Source of the DNA: Pseudomonadota bacterium
GTDB taxonomy: Bacteria; Pseudomonadota; Gammaproteobacteria; Thiotrichales; Thiotrichaceae
Assembly: GCA_002747455.1 (NCBI GenBank)
Contig: PDPG01000041.1
Span: 14,980-78,979, forward strand
Direction: 5' to 3'
DNA length: 64,000 nt
Part shown: in pieces, positions 54,781 through 63,840 of the stretch
Layout of the letters: every line of letters starts with the position of its first letter
Numbering within the stretch: position 1 is the stretch's first letter
Translations under genes and position numbers: made by a program
The notes under the pieces: generated by a model
Database searches by the model: none
What the model was told of the DNA's origin: nothing
What the model saw: only the letters and a program-made list of their open reading frames with translations

Positions 54781-55653
54781 TCAAGAAACCCCAGCCTGAT
54801 TCTTGGCTGCACGCACCGTGTTATACATCAGACAGGCAATCGTCATTGGCCCCACGCCACCCGGCACCGGCGTAATTGCACCAGCAACATCTTTGGCAGC
54901 ATCAAAATCCACATCACCCACCAAACGATTTTTACCCAACGCTTCATCGTAAATACGGTTAATCCCCACATCAATCACTGTGGCCCCAGGTTTTATCCAT
55001 TCACCCTGGATAAAGTGAGGAATACCAACGGCCGCGACCAAAATATCCGCCCCCTGACACACAGATGGCAAGTCTTTGGTGCGTGAATGCGCGATAGTCA
55101 CAGTACAGTTTTGCTGTAATAACAACGCGGCCATTGGCTTGCCAACGATATTTGAGCGGCCAACCACCACGGCATTCATGCCGCTTAAATCACCCAGCTC
55201 GTCCTGTAACAACATCAAGGAACCCAGCGGCGTACAGGGCACCAGATTATTCTGACCGACGGATAAAGCCCCCACATTACTAATATGGAAGCCATCTACA
55301 TCTTTATCGGGATTAATGGCATTGATGACTGAATCACTGTTGATCTGTTTCGGTAAGGGCAGCTGCACCAAAATACCGTGCACCTCAGTATCATTGTTCA
55401 GTGTATCAATCAGGGACAGCAGTTCTTCTTCGGTTGTTGAAGCGTCCAGATGGTGCGAGCGTGAGTCAATACCTAATTGTGCGCAACGCTTCACTTTGGC
55501 ACCGACATACGTCGCACTTGCCGGGTCTTCGCCCACCAGCACGACAGCAATACAGGGGGATAACTGCTTATCTTGTTTCAATGAGACGATTTCATCGGCC
55601 AATGTCTCGCAAAGACGGTCAGCAAATGCTTTTCCATCAATTAATTTGCTCAT
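54781..55653 (-). CDS. folD: Methylene-THF dehydrogenase/cyclohydrolase
   Basis: [42 protein letters not shown]. Confidence 0.98.
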
Positions 55654-55707
55654 GGACTCTCTCCAACAGGGTATTTAAAAAATAGTTGAGCAATGATGAT
55701 GACACGC

Positions 55708-55721
55708 TTGATCGGTGTCAA
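55708..55721 (+). promoter_or_regulatory. FNR/Anr-like box upstream of the phosphotransferase-kinase gene
   Basis: TTGATCGGTGTCAA (reverse TTGACACCGATCAA), one mismatch to TTGAT-N4-ATCAA; weak -10-like TTAAAT at 55745-50. Confidence 0.5.
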
Positions 55722-55785
55722 TGCAATTAAGCGGGACGCTAGCGTTAAATGTGCTGATGAGTCGCAGACTATTACGGAAATTGTT

Positions 55786-57420
55786 ATGCCCCAAGCCGCG
55801 TCATCTACCCTCGCCCATCGTCTGATAGAATCCCTGCAACACGCTGCTGAAACCACGCATCCTGAGCAGATTCATCTACTGGAAACACACATTTCTCAGA
55901 TCATCCTGACAGGCGAGATTGCTTATAAGATCAAAAAGCCTGTCAACCTGGGATTTCTCGACTTTCGTACCTTGCAACAACGCAAATATTATTGTGAGGA
56001 GGAGCTGCGCCTTAATGCGCGTTTGGCGAAAGCACTCTATCTAGGGATTGTTACCATTAATGGTACGCCGGAAAAGCCCGTTATCAATGGTGAGGGGCCG
56101 GTCATTGAATACGCCATTCGTATGCGGCAATTTCCGCAGTCTGCACAACTGGATAACCGGCTGCAACAGGGCCTGTTGACCACTGAAAACATGGAAGCCT
56201 TGGGCGATATGCTGGCAGCGTTTCATCAGTCACTCCCCGCTGCAAACCATGAAATTGAATATGGTGATACAGCACATATCCTAAAAAATGTTGACGACAA
56301 TCTAACGGTACTTGCGGGCTATTTTTACGATGACGCACACAATACAAGCAAGCCGAACGGCGGCCTATCAGCTGAACAGCAAGCCTTGGCGCGCATCACG
56401 GACTGGGTAGAAACACAAAATGCTGCGCTAGAAGAAACCTTTATCCAGCGCAGACGTGATGGCTTTACCCGTGAGTGTCATGGCGACCTGCACTTGAAAA
56501 ATTTGATCTGGCTGGATGAGCAGCCCATTGCATTTGACTGTCTGGAGTTTGATGAGTCACTGCGCTGGATCGATGTGATGTGCGAAGTCGGTTTTTTGGT
56601 CATGGACTTAATGAGTCACCAGCAAAACACCCTCGCCTATGCATTTCTGAATCAATACCTGCAACACACCGGCGATTACGCTGGTCTGACCGTGCTGCCC
56701 TATTACATCAGCTATCGCGCAATGGTTCGAGCCAAGGTTGATACCCTACGCCACCAGCAAGCAGGTATCAGCCCACAGGAACTTAAAGTGGCGGATAGCG
56801 AACTACACAGTTATCTGGACTTGGCACTACACATCAGTGAGCCAAGACAACCGATGTTGATTATCACACGGGGTATGTCCGCTTCCGGCAAAAGTACCAT
56901 CAGCAAGCCACTGGCTGCGGAATTGGGTGCGATACGCATCCGCTCGGATGTTGAACGGAAACGACTTTATAAGCTGCAAGCTACTGATTCCGCTGCCAAT
57001 GACATCGGCACGGGTTTATATAGCCAAGCCATCAGCGCCCAAACTTATGACAAGCTATTGAGTCTTACAGAACAGGTTTTATCAGCGGGCTTTCATGTCA
57101 TTGTGGATGCAGTGTTTATGCACAAGGCGCAGCGCGAACTTTTTCAGAGGCTGGCCGAAACCAAGGGCTACCGCTTTGTCATTCTGGAATTTACTGCAAG
57201 CCCCGACACCTTGCGTGAGCGGATTGTTCACCGGGAAACAGGCGCATCGGATGCAGACTTACCCGTATTGGAACACCAGTTAAAACAGTGGCAAACGTTG
57301 GATAACGAGGAGCGCAAGCACCAGTTTGTGGTCAACACGGAAAGCCGCGCCGTACCACAAACACTGGCAAATCAACTGAGGCGACACCACCTTGTAACAG
57401 ACACGCCGTCTGCTCCCTAG
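55786..57420 (+). CDS. Aminoglycoside-phosphotransferase-like / P-loop (AAA_33, gluconate-kinase-like) fusion
   Basis: ETHISQI..AYKIKKPV.LGFLDF, RECHGDLHLKNL, FDCLEFDESLRWID; P-loop GMSASGKST, RSDVERKRL; likely ATG 55786. Confidence 0.88.
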   Translation: MPQAASSTLAHRLIESLQHAAETTHPEQIHLLETHISQIILTGEIAYKIKKPVNLGFLDFRTLQQRKYYCEEELRLNARLAKALYLGIVTINGTPEKPVINGEGPVIEYAIRMRQFPQSAQLDNRLQQGLLTTENMEALGDMLAAFHQSLPAANHEIEYGDTAHILKNVDDNLTVLAGYFYDDAHNTSKPNGGLSAEQQALARITDWVETQNAALEETFIQRRRDGFTRECHGDLHLKNLIWLDEQPIAFDCLEFDESLRWIDVMCEVGFLVMDLMSHQQNTLAYAFLNQYLQHTGDYAGLTVLPYYISYRAMVRAKVDTLRHQQAGISPQELKVADSELHSYLDLALHISEPRQPMLIITRGMSASGKSTISKPLAAELGAIRIRSDVERKRLYKLQATDSAANDIGTGLYSQAISAQTYDKLLSLTEQVLSAGFHVIVDAVFMHKAQRELFQRLAETKGYRFVILEFTASPDTLRERIVHRETGASDADLPVLEHQLKQWQTLDNEERKHQFVVNTESRAVPQTLANQLRRHHLVTDTPSAP

Positions 57421-57466
57421 CTCGGCGGGGGCAGTAAATACCTCGCCCAAACGCTGAATCACCTAC

Positions 57467-58318
57467 CTATGCTTTGGCGGGTAGCGGTACAGCCAGCACA
57501 TCGCAACGCGCATGTGAGGATACATAATTAGTCGTTGAGCCAACAAACGAGCCAATTCCCCGACGGCTACGCGTACCCAGCACGATCAAATCCACATTTT
57601 GCGCCTGTGCGTAGGACACGATACTGGCCATCGGCGATCCCAAAATCACCTGACCCTGCTCCTTCGGAACACCCAACTCCTCCAGCAAAGCATTCAGCTG
57701 CCTTTTGCCACTATCCACCAATGATTCCTGCAGCTCGGCAACATTTCCCGCAGCAACCCCCATGCCTAATGGCTGGTAGTAATAATCATTCAGCACCGCT
57801 TCATTCACGACATGCAACACCCGCAGATCCGCAGAAAAGTGGTCTGCAATTGACTTGGCACGGTGCGCAGCATAACGCGCGTTCCTGGAAAAATCCACGG
57901 ACACCAGCACACGCTTGTAATCCGTATCCTCAGCTTCTTCCAACATGGCTTTCAATAGCTGCTCACTGCGAAGCCAGTCCCACGCTTCATGCGCATTTTC
58001 TCTATCGAAATACTTCACTTCGCCATCAACAAACGGCTTGCCTAAATTAACCGCCCAACGCTCCCAGAGTTTATCCCCTACGATGGCAATTTTTTCAAAC
58101 TGATCTTGATGACTCAGGCCAAATTCAACATCTTCTTTCAGCACACCCAGCTCTGCGCCATCAAACTCATCCAACTCAATCAATAGGGAAATTTTTCCAT
58201 AACGCTTGATAAGACCTTCCAATTCGGGCAGAAAGTTGTGATATTCCTCATGGGTCAAACGCCCAGACACACGAATAGCAAAGATATTATCTTCTCTAAC
58301 GGGGATAAACTGAAACAT
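57467..58318 (-). CDS. SpoIIAA-like (STAS/SEC14) domain fused to a universal stress protein domain
   Basis: N-half AIRVSGRLTHEEY..FEKIAIVGD..VKYFDRENAHEAWDWL; C-half VLVSVDFS..DLIVLGTR..VGSTTNYVSSHARCDVLAV; AGGAG SD before ATG 58318. Confidence 0.88.
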   Translation of the reverse strand: MFQFIPVREDNIFAIRVSGRLTHEEYHNFLPELEGLIKRYGKISLLIELDEFDGAELGVLKEDVEFGLSHQDQFEKIAIVGDKLWERWAVNLGKPFVDGEVKYFDRENAHEAWDWLRSEQLLKAMLEEAEDTDYKRVLVSVDFSRNARYAAHRAKSIADHFSADLRVLHVVNEAVLNDYYYQPLGMGVAAGNVAELQESLVDSGKRQLNALLEELGVPKEQGQVILGSPMASIVSYAQAQNVDLIVLGTRSRRGIGSFVGSTTNYVSSHARCDVLAVPLPAKA

Positions 58319-58414
58319 TTGTCTACTCCTTAAATTATTGAGTGAGGCTGCCACTGACTCCGCCACGATACCCTGTGCGTCATCACACACATTTGAACTG
58401 GCCCCATCTGCGAT

Positions 58415-60220
58415 CTACTTCTGATAGTCCTCCACCGGAATACTTTCCAGTGGCTTGCCACCTTTAAGTGGGGGCGAATTACATTCTAAAAATACCCGAA
58501 GTTTACAAGACTGGCACTTCTCATGATCCAACGCAACGGTCGTAATTTTATTAATCGCTTCTTTCTTCCCCTCAAAGAAAAACCGCGCACCAATGTGTTC
58601 ATCAAAATGACCACGATGAATAAAGTTATTCACTTTTGGCTTTAGCTCCGCAAAATATAGCCCGCCGCCCTTTTGTTGTAAACGGTCAGACTCCTGCTCA
58701 ATCATCTCCGCGCCTGTCATATCAATAAAATTCACGGCCGTGCCAATCACCAGAATATGCTTAATGCCCTGTTTTTCACTAATGTAATGCAGACGGTTTT
58801 GAATATGATTCGCAGAGCCAAAATAAATCGACATATCAATGCGGATAATTTTTAGTTGTGGGCACTCTTTCAAATTGTTCCGGCGGGACTCTTTGATCAG
58901 TGTGGCCTTGCCTGTTTCAGGGTCATAATCCGATGCTAGGCTGATGACATCGGGAATAGAGGTTCGGGCCAAAAAAATCACCAGCGATAGCAGCACGCCC
59001 AGATAAATTGCAAACTCCAGCTCCAGAAATAGCGTAGCAAAAAAGGTGGTTAATAAAATGCTGCTTTCTGAACGACTGGTGGTAAAAATTTTGTGGATGG
59101 TTTCCCAATTTACCAAGCTGTACGCCACCAGTAAAATGATCCCCCCCATTGCGGCAGTTGGCAGGTAACGGGTTATCGGTGCAATCAGCAAAATAATTGC
59201 GGCCAAAATCACTGCGGCAAAGATGGCCGATAATGGCGTTTTCGCACCTGAGGCATAATTTACGCCAGAGCGGGTAAACGAGCCGGAGCCAGCGTAACTG
59301 GAGAAAAAGCTACCCACCACATTCGACATACCCTGCCCGAAAAATTCCTGATTGCCATCAATGCGTTGGTGTGATTTTGAAGCAATCGCACGACTAATCG
59401 ACACCGCCTCAATTAACCCCAATAAGGCCACAGCAAAGGCTTGTGGTGCCAAGGCTTTCATGCTCTGAAAGGAAAAATCAGGTGATGATAGTGGCGGTAA
59501 ATGAGCCGGAATCTCTGCCACAAACTCAATCCCCACCAGTTCGCCGCCCATTGCTAGTGCAGTCAGGCCACCAACAACCAGCGCAATCAACATATTGGGA
59601 AGTTTTGGTATAAAACGCTTAATCAAAATAGCCGTGAATAAAGTCACCATACTAACCGCAAAAATAGCCCAGTTAATCGATGGCAACTGATGGAAAATAT
59701 CAAACCATGTATGCAGAAAAGATTCTCCGCGCGGAACATCCACACCCAACACGTACTTCATCTGACTACTGGCAATCAGAATGGCCGCCCCTGCTGTAAA
59801 CCCAACCACTACTGTGTGCGAAACAAAGTTTACCAGAACCCCCAAACGCGCCACCGCAAACGCCAACTGATAGACACCGGCCAAAAACGTAATGGTCAGT
59901 GCATTTTGAATATAAGCATCACTCCCCGGCTCAACATCACCACCGCTTAGTGCCGCAAAAATAACAATGGAAATTGCCGTCGTCGGCCCTGAAATCAGAT
60001 GCAATGACGAACCAAACAACGCCGCGATAATGGGTGTTATCATCGCCGTGTATAAGCCGTATTCTGGCGGTAATCCGGCAATGGTCGCGAAGGCAACACC
60101 TTGTGGCAAGACAATCACAGCCCCCGTCAGGCCAGCCATAAAATCGGCTTTTAAAGTCTCTTTGGTCACGCCAGGCAGCCAAAACATGAACGGAAATAAA
60201 AAGTACAATAAGGAATTCAT
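58415..60220 (-). CDS. SulP family anion permease with STAS domain
   Basis: ADFMAGLTGAVIVLPQGVAFA, GLPPEYGLY, GSFTRS, C-terminal STAS (IIRIDMSIYFGS). Confidence 0.93.
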   Translation of the reverse strand: MNSLLYFLFPFMFWLPGVTKETLKADFMAGLTGAVIVLPQGVAFATIAGLPPEYGLYTAMITPIIAALFGSSLHLISGPTTAISIVIFAALSGGDVEPGSDAYIQNALTITFLAGVYQLAFAVARLGVLVNFVSHTVVVGFTAGAAILIASSQMKYVLGVDVPRGESFLHTWFDIFHQLPSINWAIFAVSMVTLFTAILIKRFIPKLPNMLIALVVGGLTALAMGGELVGIEFVAEIPAHLPPLSSPDFSFQSMKALAPQAFAVALLGLIEAVSISRAIASKSHQRIDGNQEFFGQGMSNVVGSFFSSYAGSGSFTRSGVNYASGAKTPLSAIFAAVILAAIILLIAPITRYLPTAAMGGIILLVAYSLVNWETIHKIFTTSRSESSILLTTFFATLFLELEFAIYLGVLLSLVIFLARTSIPDVISLASDYDPETGKATLIKESRRNNLKECPQLKIIRIDMSIYFGSANHIQNRLHYISEKQGIKHILVIGTAVNFIDMTGAEMIEQESDRLQQKGGGLYFAELKPKVNNFIHRGHFDEHIGARFFFEGKKEAINKITTVALDHEKCQSCKLRVFLECNSPPLKGGKPLESIPVEDYQK

Positions 60221-60351
60221 CGCGATCGTTTAGGGTACAGGTGCTAAAACTCCCCAAGTTTACGCCTGTTTCTTGTAAATAAGTTAATTTCAGACAAGTA
60301 TTTTTTACTAAAAAGGTCGATTAGGGGCTACGAATAAAGCTTATGACATTT

Positions 60352-60393
60352 TTGATATAGCTCAATGTCAGAATCATTTCCTCAGCGTACGAT
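60352..60393 (+). promoter_or_regulatory. Class II FNR/CRP-family promoter of the SLAC1/TDT gene
   Basis: TTGATATAGCTCAA at 60352-65 (one mismatch) and -10 TACGAT at 60388-93 place the box centre at -41.5 from an inferred +1 near 60400. Confidence 0.65.
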
Positions 60394-60426
60394 CGGTGCC
60401 CTTTTACTCATTCGCAGGTAAGTTAC

Positions 60427-61404
60427 ATGGATACCACTCAACAGGAAACCGAATCACGCCTGGCGTATATGCCCATTTCATTCTTTTCCATTGTCATGGG
60501 CTTGTCGGGGCTAACCATCGCTTGGCATAAAGCACAGCCTGTATTCGGCATGAATCTTGGCTTGATCAATATCATTCTACCCACATTAGTGTCGGCCATC
60601 TTCTTAGTATTGGCCTGGAGCTATACCCAAAAGATCATCCGGTTCCCGGAAAAAGTGGCCGGCGAGCTGAAGCATCCGGTAAAACTCAGTTTTTTCCCAA
60701 CGATTTCCATAAGCATCTTGCTGCTTTCCATCGTTTTCCTGTCAATCAGCCCCGCTATCGGGCGGGTACTCTGGGCAGTAGGTGCCACAGCGCACATTGG
60801 CTTCGTCCTTTATATTATCAGCACGTGGATGCACCAAGGCCACTTTCAGGTACAACACATTAATCCGGCCTGGTTCATCCCTGCGGTGGGTAATGTAATC
60901 GTGCCCATTGCTGGTGTTCCGCTGGGCTTTGTCGAACTATCATGGTTCTTCTTCAGCATTGGCATACTATTCTGGATTATTTTGATGACGATCGTGTTTT
61001 ATCGTCTCTTATTCCATGACCCCATCCCGACCCACATGCTGCCAACATTATTTATTTTGATTGCACCGCCTGCGGTCGGATTTGTATCTTATATGCGCCT
61101 GACAGGGGAATTGGATTCATTCGCCAGAATTTTGTATTTTTCCGGTCTGTTCCTGACATTACTCCTGTTCTCACAAGCCAAACGCTTCCTGAGATTGCCA
61201 TTTTTCTTGTCATGGTGGGCCTACTCGTTCCCTGTTGCTGCGATTACTATTGCCAGCATGGTGGTGTTTGAACACACACAAAAAACTGGTTTTATGTGGA
61301 TCGGCGGTCTGCTCTTAACCTTGCTAACCTGCCTGATCGGGCTATTACTGGTGCGTACCGCAATAGCAATTAAAAATCGGGAAATCTGCACTGACGCACA
61401 TTAA
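60427..61404 (+). CDS. SLAC1/TDT (TehA-like) anion channel
   Basis: PISFFSIVMGLSGL, NPAWFIPAVGN, TLFILIAPPAVG, FFLSWWAYSFP; about 10 TMs. Confidence 0.9.
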   Translation: MDTTQQETESRLAYMPISFFSIVMGLSGLTIAWHKAQPVFGMNLGLINIILPTLVSAIFLVLAWSYTQKIIRFPEKVAGELKHPVKLSFFPTISISILLLSIVFLSISPAIGRVLWAVGATAHIGFVLYIISTWMHQGHFQVQHINPAWFIPAVGNVIVPIAGVPLGFVELSWFFFSIGILFWIILMTIVFYRLLFHDPIPTHMLPTLFILIAPPAVGFVSYMRLTGELDSFARILYFSGLFLTLLLFSQAKRFLRLPFFLSWWAYSFPVAAITIASMVVFEHTQKTGFMWIGGLLLTLLTCLIGLLLVRTAIAIKNREICTDAH

Positions 61405-61425: not shown

Positions 61426-61463
61426 AAAAGGCGCATATCCCTAAACAAGGATGCGCCTTTTTT
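61426..61463 (+). terminator. Rho-independent terminator after the SLAC1 gene
   Basis: AAAAGGCGCAT..ATGCGCCTTTTTT. Confidence 0.8.
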
Positions 61464-61533: not shown

Positions 61534-63030
61534 ATGTCACATACCGTCAAACTGTCCCCTCTGATGATTCAGGGCTGCACCTCCGATGCTGGAAAATCGT
61601 ATCTAGCTGCCGGATTCTGCCGTCTTTATGCCAACCGGGGGATTCGTGTCGCACCATTTAAGGCGCAGAATATGTCGAATAATGCAGGCGTGACACCCGA
61701 TGGCGGTGAAATTGGCCGCGCACAATTACTCCAGGCACAAGCAGCGAGGCTCAGTCCCAGCGTTCACATGAATCCGGTGTTACTCAAACCGGAAGCCGAC
61801 TCACTGTCACAAGTCATTTTACTTGGTAAAGCTCAGCCACAACTCAAACAGATTCCTTGGCAAGCCCGTAAAGATTATCTTTGGAAAACGGTCAAAAGCA
61901 GCCTACAAAATATGCAGGATGACTATGAATTGCTGATTATCGAAGGTGCAGGCAGTCCCGCTGAAATTAATCTGCGCTCAGGCGATATTGTGAATATGCG
62001 CATTGCATTGGCAGCGCAGGCCAAGGTATTACTGGCTTCAGATATTGACCGTGGCGGTTCATTCGCTCACCTGCTGGGCACATGGCATTGCCTTGAAGAA
62101 AAAGAGCAACAGTGCATTGCCGGTTTTTTACTAAATAAGTTTCGGGGCGATGCCTCATTGCTGGGTAACGCGATGGAGTGGCTGGCTGGCAAAACTGACA
62201 TTCCCACACTAGGCATTGTGCCAATGCTGAATTTGCCGCTGCCGACAGAGGATGCGTATTCCCAGGAATCCAGCACTTCGCACTCCGGTATTACACAACA
62301 GGATAAGCTCGAAAGTACTGGCACATCCCCTGCCCCCAAAACTGCCATTATTCGCACACCCTATATGTCTAACTTTGATGAGTTTGATGCGCTATTCCAT
62401 GAGCCGCAAATTAGTGTCAGTTTTGTCGATCAGGTGCATGAATTAACAGACATTGAGGCCGTGATTATTCCCGGCTCCAAGCATGTCAGTGTGGACTTGG
62501 AGTTTTTAAAACAGAATGGCTTTGCCGCTCGACTACACCAACTAGCCTCACAAGGCGTACAAATTCTGGGCGTATGCGGCGGCATGCAAATACTCGGCAA
62601 AAGTTTGCGTGACCCGCACAATCTGGAAGGTGGCTACCACAGCCAAGGACTTGGACTATTGGCGATTGACACCACACTAGAGGCGGAAAAGACGACCCAG
62701 CAAACCACTGCGACCTTAATCGGTAGTGGCGCTCAAGTGACGGGCTATGAAATTCATCATGGAAAAACCCACGCAGATGCTGGTGTAAAACCTTATCTAA
62801 AAAACCAGCAAGGTGAAGTGATTGGTTATGTGCAGGGCAATATTGCGGGTATGTACGCACACGGCTTATTTGACAATGCCGTGTATCGACAAGAATTTTT
62901 ACAAAAACTAGGCATTCGTGCCCAAACAGGTGAATGGGCTGAACAAGTAGATGCCGCACTGGATACACTGGCGCTCCATTTAGAAAAGCATTGTGACATG
63001 GCTGCAATTGATCGGGCGATTGGGCTTTGA
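61534..63030 (+). CDS. cobQ: Cobyric acid synthase
   Basis: QGCTSDAGKS, PFKAQNMSNN, EGAGSPAEINL, DIDRGG, GVCGGMQILG, GYEIHHG, YAHGLFDN. Confidence 0.93.
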   Translation: MSHTVKLSPLMIQGCTSDAGKSYLAAGFCRLYANRGIRVAPFKAQNMSNNAGVTPDGGEIGRAQLLQAQAARLSPSVHMNPVLLKPEADSLSQVILLGKAQPQLKQIPWQARKDYLWKTVKSSLQNMQDDYELLIIEGAGSPAEINLRSGDIVNMRIALAAQAKVLLASDIDRGGSFAHLLGTWHCLEEKEQQCIAGFLLNKFRGDASLLGNAMEWLAGKTDIPTLGIVPMLNLPLPTEDAYSQESSTSHSGITQQDKLESTGTSPAPKTAIIRTPYMSNFDEFDALFHEPQISVSFVDQVHELTDIEAVIIPGSKHVSVDLEFLKQNGFAARLHQLASQGVQILGVCGGMQILGKSLRDPHNLEGGYHSQGLGLLAIDTTLEAEKTTQQTTATLIGSGAQVTGYEIHHGKTHADAGVKPYLKNQQGEVIGYVQGNIAGMYAHGLFDNAVYRQEFLQKLGIRAQTGEWAEQVDAALDTLALHLEKHCDMAAIDRAIGL

Positions 63031-63173: not shown

Positions 63174-63434
63174 ATGCAAAGTTGGCCAGTACAAGATGCA
63201 AAAGCACGCTTCAGTGAGTTTTTAGACACCTGCTTGTCAGATGGCCCTCAAGTGGTCTCTCGACGGGGGACAGAAACAGCCGTTTTAGTGTCACTCAGTG
63301 AGTGGAAGCGTTTGCAATCGGTGGCAAAACCATCACTGAAATCATTATTACTCAGCCCTGTCGGGCGCACAGATGACCTATACATTCCAAAACGTGGAAA
63401 TGCCCGCCGCCGTGTAGTGCAAGAAATAATCTGA
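63174..63434 (+). CDS. Phd/YefM family antitoxin
   Basis: WPVQDAKARFSEFL..GPQVVSRRG..AVLVS; GAGGAG SD. Confidence 0.9.
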   Translation: MQSWPVQDAKARFSEFLDTCLSDGPQVVSRRGTETAVLVSLSEWKRLQSVAKPSLKSLLLSPVGRTDDLYIPKRGNARRRVVQEII

Positions 63435-63435
63435 T

Positions 63436-63840
63436 ATGTATCTTGTTGATACCAATGTAGTTTCTGAATTGCGGCGAATCAAACCACACGGTGCTGTTGT
63501 GTCGTGGATTGAGTCAGTTAATGAGGCTGACCTATTCCTGTCTGCGGTAACCTTGGCAGAGATTCAGGCAGGTATTGAAATCACGCGTGAGCAAGACGAA
63601 GCGCGGGCGACAGAACTTGAGTTGTGGCTAAATGCTGTTGCAGAAAGCTACAACATCATCCCAATGGATGCTCGAACATTTCGCCTTTGGGCAAAGTTGA
63701 TGCATAGAAAATCAGACACACTTTACGAAGATGCCATGATCGCCGCCACTGCCAAAGTACATAATTTTTCGGTTGTGACTCGTAATGTCAGTGACTTTGT
63801 CGGCTTTGATGTTCCGATAGTCAATCCATTTGACGGTTAA
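63436..63840 (+). CDS. VapC (PIN domain) toxin
   Basis: YLVDTNVVSEL, SAVTLAEI, DAMIAATA, VTRNVSDF. Confidence 0.92.
   Translation: MYLVDTNVVSELRRIKPHGAVVSWIESVNEADLFLSAVTLAEIQAGIEITREQDEARATELELWLNAVAESYNIIPMDARTFRLWAKLMHRKSDTLYEDAMIAATAKVHNFSVVTRNVSDFVGFDVPIVNPFDG

Follow-up and report, generated by a model that had tools for sequence, protein, structure and literature searches.

Candidate FNR-type class II promoter sites upstream of a two-domain kinase gene and a SLAC1/TehA-like channel gene in Leucothrix

Regulators of the FNR/Anr type activate class II promoters from the inverted repeat TTGAT-N4-ATCAA centred at -41.5, and the identical box is recognised by the paralogues Dnr, FixK and Anr. 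The genes hemN, ccoN and that of cytochrome c peroxidase make up the classic set under direct FNR/Anr control; to our knowledge, neither a fusion of an APH-like phosphotransferase with an AAA_33 P-loop kinase nor a SLAC1/TehA-like channel is among the known targets. Here we describe a stretch of 64,000 nucleotides (hereafter the window; GenBank assembly GCA_002747455.1, contig PDPG01000041.1, positions 14,980 to 78,979) from the genome of a Leucothrix, in which one gene of each of these two kinds is preceded by a box of this type. Taking all of the evidence together, the two boxes are probably separate class II activator sites of an FNR/FixK-type regulator and part of a low-oxygen regulon.

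The assembly used for the analysis comprises 2.59 Mb in 75 contigs and is 97.4% complete, and gene identities in the window were taken from Pfam and NCBIfam profile searches. A box was defined as the inverted repeat TTGAT-N4-ATCAA with at most one mismatch in its 10 specified positions, and class II geometry as a box followed after about 22 nt by a -10 of the type TAnnnT, with the mirrored sequence serving as the control. The congeners L. pacifica, L. mucor and L. arctica were compared, together with the metagenomic Leucothrix loci L070 and L071. The elements at the centre of the analysis are the following (window coordinates).

55708-55721, no strand assigned: box 1, TTGATCGGTGTCAA, an inverted repeat of FNR/FixK type (9/10 match to the consensus)
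55743-55751, plus strand: conserved CGTTAAATG block with the putative -10 of the kinase gene, TTAAAT
55786-57420, plus strand: gene of a two-domain kinase, with an N-terminal APH-like phosphotransferase and a C-terminal AAA_33 P-loop kinase (Pfam)
60352-60365, no strand assigned: box 2, TTGATATAGCTCAA, an inverted repeat of FNR/FixK type (9/10 match to the consensus)
60388-60393, plus strand: -10 hexamer TACGAT, 22 nt past box 2, at a conserved spacing
60427-61404, plus strand: gene of a SLAC1/TehA-family (TDT) anion channel or transporter (PF03595, 190 bits)

Both boxes had been proposed in a first-pass annotation of this DNA, and direct reading of the sequence confirmed each of them at 9 of 10 positions. 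The same annotation had placed box 2 at -41.5 relative to the TACGAT hexamer, and this geometry was found as predicted, with 22 nt between the two elements; the centre of the box, 60358.5, falls at -41.5 from a predicted SLAC1 transcription start near 60400, which is 27 nt ahead of the ATG at 60427. In L. arctica the box is perfect (10/10, TTGATATTCATCAA) and in L. pacifica it reads TTGATTTTCCTCAA, while a -10 of the form GTATGATC or GTATCATC was observed at the identical 22-nt spacing in all four Leucothrix species. The DNA around the box has diverged, with a mean column identity of 54% over the spacer between the SulP and SLAC1 genes, and the longest invariant block in this spacer, TTTTTGAT.T...CAAT, coincides with box 2. 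A CRP reading (TGTGA-N6-TCACA) was considered for both boxes and ruled out by the half-site sequence. It was also considered whether box 2 could be shared with the SulP gene; the likely SulP start (placed by means of a conserved TAAACT) is about 111 nt downstream of the box centre, a distance beyond the usual class I positions. In L. pacifica, the SLAC1 orthologue was found to be split into two overlapping open reading frames, one for residues 1-106 and one for residues 191-325, each 138 aa long (L040:10509-11229), and is probably a pseudogene whose FNR-type promoter has stayed intact.

For the kinase gene, alignment with the congeners placed the start at the ATG at 55786 rather than at 55693, where the open frame has its first ATG, and box 1 is therefore intergenic. 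The CGTTAAATG block starts 21 nt past the box and its TTAAAT 23 nt past it, giving a predicted transcription start near 55756. This block is identical in the window genome, L. pacifica, L070 and L071, and its L. arctica version is TGTTTAATG. Box 1 itself was found to be kept in five of six lineages: it is identical to that of the window in L071, reads TTGATAAGTGTCAA in L. pacifica and L070, and reads TTGACAAGCATCAA in L. arctica, where the neighbouring gene is a USP gene and not folD. In the window, the neighbour on the other side of box 1 is folD, whose own promoter runs into the box.

54781-55653, minus strand: folD (methylenetetrahydrofolate dehydrogenase/cyclohydrolase), divergent from the kinase gene (Pfam and NCBIfam; NF010785 score 454.8 bits, cut-off 396)
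55693-55721, minus strand: sigma-70 promoter of folD, with -35 TTGACA (55721-55716), a 17-nt spacer and -10 CATCAT (55698-55693), matching at 10 of 12 positions

The folD -35, TTGACA, is the minus-strand reading of the right half of box 1, and the arrangement TTGACA-N17-CATCAT was also found in L. pacifica and L. mucor. The possibility that box 1 is merely this -35 element was ruled out, as both half-sites are intact in L. arctica without an adjoining folD. Because the palindrome is kept there away from folD, it is selected in its own right. Relative to the folD start, a dimer occupying box 1 would lie near -28.5, a position from which it may activate the kinase gene while hindering folD.

Across the whole genome, 257 boxes were counted, with a slight enrichment outside coding sequence. 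When the search was restricted to class II geometry in promoter positions, 9 boxes were obtained, compared with none in the mirrored control. We took boxes 1 and 2 as real because they are kept between species and because of this genome-wide class II excess; the evidence supports the view that both behave as genuine FNR/FixK-type class II sites, conserved within Leucothrix.

The same layout was found at genes that are familiar targets of such regulators. The hemN promoter carries TTGACCTAAATCAA, 22 nt and TAGGAT, an arrangement also present in L. pacifica, and the gene of a di-haem cytochrome c peroxidase (contig C44) has a box with a spaced -10. A second peroxidase gene (contig C55, divergent from rnfA) is preceded by a one-mismatch box without a scored -10. 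At ccoN-1, the three congeners all have the box in perfect form, TTGATTTCGATCAA, and the window genome has TTGATTTCTGTCAA, with one mismatch. The window genome has a single ccoN; the congeners have two, the second of them near fnr and yebC. Perfect TTGAT-N4-ATCAA boxes were also noted at C18:16131, between alaS and the gene of a flavoprotein with a Tat signal resembling sulfide:quinone reductase or FccB, at C44:53337, upstream of a DppB-like ABC permease gene, and at C60:35019, upstream of the gene of a transglutaminase-like membrane protein; among these three, a spaced -10 (TAACTT, at 21 nt) was present at the DppB-like site only. One further box with a single mismatch, TTGATCGGCATCAT, lies at C67:81272, about 2.3 kb past the window end and just upstream of a gene for a CBS/cNMP-binding nucleotidyltransferase, whose homologue in L. 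arctica is 2.4 kb from fnr.

Several observations weigh against assigning the two boxes to an FNR/FixK-type regulator. In the window, 7 boxes were found where 3.6 would be expected, and as many as 7 turned up in 8 of 100 shuffles; the count by itself is not significant. Boxes 1 and 2 carry one mismatch each. In L. mucor, box 2 (TTGATTTGTCGCAA) has two mismatches and box 1 is degenerate, its left half being lost. The TTAAAT hexamer, at a spacing of 23 nt, makes a weak -10 assignment for the kinase gene. The conservation of box 1 is in part due to folD, because its right half-site doubles as the folD -35, and the ccoN box is located inside the 3′ coding end of the upstream gene, so that protein constraint adds to its conservation. 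Moreover, no CRP/FNR-family gene or fragment was found in the 97.4%-complete assembly, and the assignment to this organism of the contig that carries a candidate regulator is circumstantial.

The simplest alternative, that the boxes are chance matches or owe their conservation to ordinary promoter elements or to another factor, with no control of the CRP/FNR type, would agree with the box count of the window and with an AT-rich motif lying in AT-rich spacers. It does not agree with the retention of both half-sites and of a constant 22-nt gap before the -10 in four to six lineages, with the recurrence of the same architecture at canonical FNR targets, or with the promoter-position count, which fell from 9 to zero in the mirrored control. 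Nor do TTGATA and TACGAT form an ordinary sigma-70 promoter: the spacer would be 30 nt long, and no conserved -10 was seen at 17 nt, which ruled out box 2 as an ordinary -35 element. We therefore regard chance or an unrelated factor as a highly improbable source of the pattern.

The missing regulator was searched for in several ways. In the assembly, the Pfam profile HTH_Crp_2 matched an Lrp/AsnC protein only and NF008365 gave no match; tblastn of the assembly with the FNR proteins of the congeners gave no match either, and the best hit of an FNR profile against all six-frame fragments of the assembly, with filters off, had E = 0.4. The sole gene of the assembly with a cNMP domain (C37:37202-37696) encodes a stand-alone 164-aa protein without a DNA-binding domain. 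In the congeners, FNR has the motif C-x2-C-x5-C, a central Cys and a recognition helix ETVSR or ETISR (E--SR). A protein 83% identical to the FNR of L. pacifica, with the Cys cluster present, was found in sample SRR6011893, which also holds the SLAC1 contig of the window. Its gene lies on an unbinned contig of 3.8-4.7 kb (SRR6011893_1505046 / PDWI01032611.1; the 3.8-kb form is the Logan contig) that encodes a membrane protein, DUF2520, FNR, DsbD_2 and YebC and has no DNA or protein in common with the assembly. The proteins of this contig are 76-92% identical to those of L. pacifica and 64-90% to those of L. mucor, the same profile as that of the assembly's own proteins, and four other FNR homologues (66-69% identity) derive from other samples.

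The gene of the YebC family proved to be informative. None was found in the assembly, although exactly one was present in each of the five relatives and a match was obtained in all 10 bacterial control genomes. A binning gap is likely because fnr adjoins this universal gene, which is also missing from the assembly, and we consider it very likely that fnr belongs to the window organism and was left out by binning. A deletion scar was also sought in the window genome by way of the fnr neighbours of the congeners, and no informative neighbour was found there; fnr is flanked by a USP gene and kefB in L. arctica, by ccoI-2 and DsbD_2 in L. mucor and L. pacifica, and by hemN in the metagenomic relatives.

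It could be argued instead that the boxes are relics, the reduced genome having truly lost FNR and the boxes having not yet decayed or being kept for other reasons, with no oxygen control left. At 2.6 Mb, the genome is about half the size of the complete congener genomes (4.8-5.2 Mb), and the absence of any CRP/FNR gene or fragment from the assembly, the loss of the second ccoN copy (which is near fnr in the congeners) and the double use of half of box 1 as the folD -35 would all be in keeping with such a loss. However, at four loci (SLAC1, kinase, hemN and ccoN) the relatives that have FNR show no better boxes than the window genome, while nearby intergenic DNA is saturated with changes, and a Leucothrix-type fnr-yebC contig occurs in the same sample while the universal yebC is missing from the assembly. 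Loss of the regulator is thus a quite improbable explanation.

A different question is which member of the family would read the boxes. They might be read by a Cys-less paralogue of the FixK/Dnr type, responding to nitric oxide, to a cascade or to another signal, in which case low oxygen would be at most an indirect cue. Each Leucothrix congener has 3 to 5 CRP/FNR paralogues, and in L. arctica one of them, a protein of 221 aa without the N-terminal Cys cluster but with the E--SR helix kept (ETLSRVF), is encoded 3 kb from the kinase gene. On the other hand, the FNR with the Cys cluster is the only family member found for the organism's sample, no paralogue is present in the assembly, and the genes that appear to be co-regulated, hemN, ccoN and ccp, are the classic set controlled directly by FNR/Anr. 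Control by a paralogue therefore appears rather unlikely, though it is the alternative to which we give the most weight.

If the boxes are class II activator sites as we propose, box 1 would drive the APH+AAA_33 kinase gene from the start near 55756 and, by its overlap with the folD -35, may dampen folD as well. Box 2 would drive a monocistronic SLAC1/TehA-like gene from the start near 60400, the transcript ending at a terminator of its own. The kinase and SLAC1 genes would then be members of a small low-oxygen-type regulon, together with ccoNOP (the cbb3 oxidase), hemN and the cytochrome c peroxidase genes, and the regulator would most likely be a genuine [4Fe-4S] FNR encoded on the short unbinned contig. 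FNR binding at the two boxes, oxygen-dependent expression and the positions of both transcription starts are thus predictions, which build on the motifs, on how these are spaced and conserved, on the other genes of the regulon and on the regulator gene found in the organism's sample.

The genes between and beyond the two promoters were then considered.

57467-58390, minus strand: gene of a fusion of a SpoIIAA-like domain (PF11964) with USP, second gene of the SulP operon (Pfam)
58415-60220, minus strand: gene of a SulP/SLC26 anion transporter with a STAS domain (PF00916, 334 bits; TIGR00815)
61426-61463, plus strand: intrinsic terminator after SLAC1, a GC-rich hairpin followed by UUUUUU (folding energy)
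61534-63030, plus strand: cobQ (cobyric acid synthase), right border of the syntenic block and outside the unit (NF001989, 559 bits; synteny)

The stop of the SulP gene is separated by 24 nt from the SpoIIAA-USP gene, both on the minus strand, and by this layout the two genes form a separate operon of their own; for the SpoIIAA-USP gene, a later ATG is chosen by gene callers, giving a protein of 283 aa. A contig scan with this fusion returned a distant Allopseudospirillum match only, which was uninformative about synteny. The hairpin behind the SLAC1 gene has a folding energy of -20.9 kcal/mol (z = -3.27), and equally good folding was obtained in none of 200 shuffles. Because of this strong intrinsic terminator, the SLAC1 gene is read as monocistronic. 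Directly 3′ of cobQ, a PhdYeFM antitoxin / PIN toxin gene pair was found (63174-63840, Pfam).

The first-pass annotation had grouped the kinase, SpoIIAA-USP, SulP and SLAC1 genes into one FNR-controlled module bracketed by the two boxes and resembling a DosR-regulon gene pair. The four gene identities were borne out by Pfam and NCBIfam. The bracketing was not: box 2 lies between SulP and SLAC1, so that SLAC1 is outside the bracketed segment. FNR control stands as a proposal for the kinase and SLAC1 genes, each with its candidate class II site, but cannot be extended to the SulP-SpoIIAA/USP operon, which runs in the opposite direction, shows no evident FNR site and is placed between the two by genus-level synteny. 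The data support two independently regulated genes and not one four-gene unit. Synteny with L. pacifica and L. mucor extends over folD / kinase / ... / SpoIIAA-USP / (thioredoxin 2) / SulP / SLAC1 / cobQ, with extra genes after the kinase gene in these two species. In L. arctica, the kinase and SLAC1 genes are on different contigs, each with its own box, and the kinase gene is divergent from a single-domain USP gene. The divergent SulP/SLAC1 pair was found only in the window genome, L. pacifica and L. mucor.

The conservation of the boxes, which the first-pass annotation had made a check of its proposal, holds within Leucothrix, while both boxes and synteny stop at the genus boundary. Outside Leucothrix, a comparable box was found at none of 12 kinase orthologue loci and at none of seven SLAC1 orthologue loci, and one genus had a conserved candidate box with two mismatches. 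As for the DosR-like pair, a USP gene lies at most 1.5 kb from the kinase gene at three loci of the Leucothrix lineage (the window, L. arctica and L071), and in L. pacifica and L. mucor the distance is about 3 kb; at none of 13 loci from other genera was a USP gene found within 1.5 kb. The two genes are thus no conserved pair and offer a loose analogy to the DosR regulon, and this part of the earlier interpretation has to be called speculation. The same applies to the suggested handling of sulfur oxyanions, to which nothing in the data points in particular.

The proteins themselves were compared with known families. In the kinase, the motifs HGDLHLKN and DCLEFD of the APH part and GMSASGKST of the P-loop part are intact, and the domains scored 36 bits (PF01636) and 103 bits (PF13671). 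More than 8000 homologues carry the names 'bifunctional aminoglycoside phosphotransferase/ATP-binding protein' or 'AAA family ATPase', and a sequence search gave no relative with a solved structure. The SLAC1 protein matches PF03595 over residues 15-311 of 325 (190.3 bits against a cut-off of 27.9) and, over the whole protein, Protein Data Bank entries at 1e-21 to 5e-29, including SLAH3 (5e-29), SLAC1 and TehA of H. influenzae (9e-24). It is best described as a family member and not as a TehA orthologue, because it scores below the TehA equivalog cut-off (NF008032, 167.6 against 342) and below that of TIGR00816 (170.4 against 237). The SulP protein reaches 396 bits with TIGR00815 (cut-off 380.45) and 55 bits with the STAS domain (PF01740), and it stays below the equivalog cut-offs of DauA (259.8 against 614) and BicA (204.6 against 880). 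In sequence it is nearer to eukaryotic SLC26/SULTR structures (prestin, 1.7e-85; SULTR4;1, 3.7e-71) than to those of bacterial SLC26/BicA (about 1e-37 to 6e-40).

If confirmed, control of this kind would supply a physiological cue for bacterial SLAC1/TehA-like channels and for the common bifunctional phosphotransferase/ATP-binding kinases, and it would narrow the search for their substrates. The locus also illustrates how a gap in binning can leave a metagenome-assembled genome, nominally 97% complete, without a regulator; the gap was detectable here because the regulator-linked universal gene yebC is missing too, and the completeness figure of 97% hides at least this fnr-yebC gap. A bolder idea, based on analogy, is that the widespread APH+P-loop kinase family, which would include Rv2004c if the homology we assume holds, has been put independently under hypoxia regulators in distant phyla, DosR in mycobacteria and FNR in Leucothrix, beside USP genes; we consider this idea unlikely. 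If it were true, a conserved role of the kinase in low-oxygen survival would be implied, such as the phosphorylation of a small molecule or nucleotide, and the SLAC1-type channel would be a dedicated low-oxygen anion release valve in bacteria.

Compared with the class II promoters of E. coli FNR and Pseudomonas Anr, the architecture described here shares the inverted repeat and the 22 nt to the -10. As in FNR/Anr regulons, hemN, the cbb3 oxidase, cytochrome c peroxidase and USP-linked genes are companion targets, and in the congeners the regulator carries both the Cys cluster and an E--SR helix. Unlike in those systems, the regulator gene is not in the window assembly and the use of the sites is predicted from sequence. 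With the TDT/SLAC1 family (TehA of H. influenzae and E. coli, plant SLAC1/SLAH, yeast Ssu1 and Mae1), the SLAC1 protein has a full-length PF03595 match in common. In the literature, no report was found of FNR control for a TehA/SLAC1 homologue, E. coli tehA included, and E. coli tehA was reported to be weakly regulated by NsrR (PMC2884951). With the SulP/SLC26 transporters (DauA, BicA, SULTR and prestin), the SulP protein shares the PF00916 + PF01740 architecture; unlike in these named systems, its gene is followed by a SpoIIAA-like-USP gene.

The kinase of the window presumably has the same APH + P-loop architecture as Rv2004c of M. tuberculosis, with which it also shares its NCBI product name, and the two kinases are likened by this architecture only. 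The M. tuberculosis pair Rv2004c-Rv2005c resembles the Leucothrix arrangement in that a phosphotransferase-type gene lies by a USP gene (at 0.2 to 3 kb in Leucothrix), but it is under DosR, whereas the Leucothrix kinase is under putative FNR control. Rv2004c belongs to the DosR regulon, and its product is a mildly active phosphotransferase (PMC8701281); Rv2005c encodes a USP (PMC5309233). Unlike Rv2005c, the USP of the Leucothrix window is fused to a SpoIIAA-like domain and encoded in an operon with SulP. Set beside these systems, the locus credibly extends an ordinary FNR-type regulon, within one genus, by two genes that have been little studied, and it is not a new kind of system.

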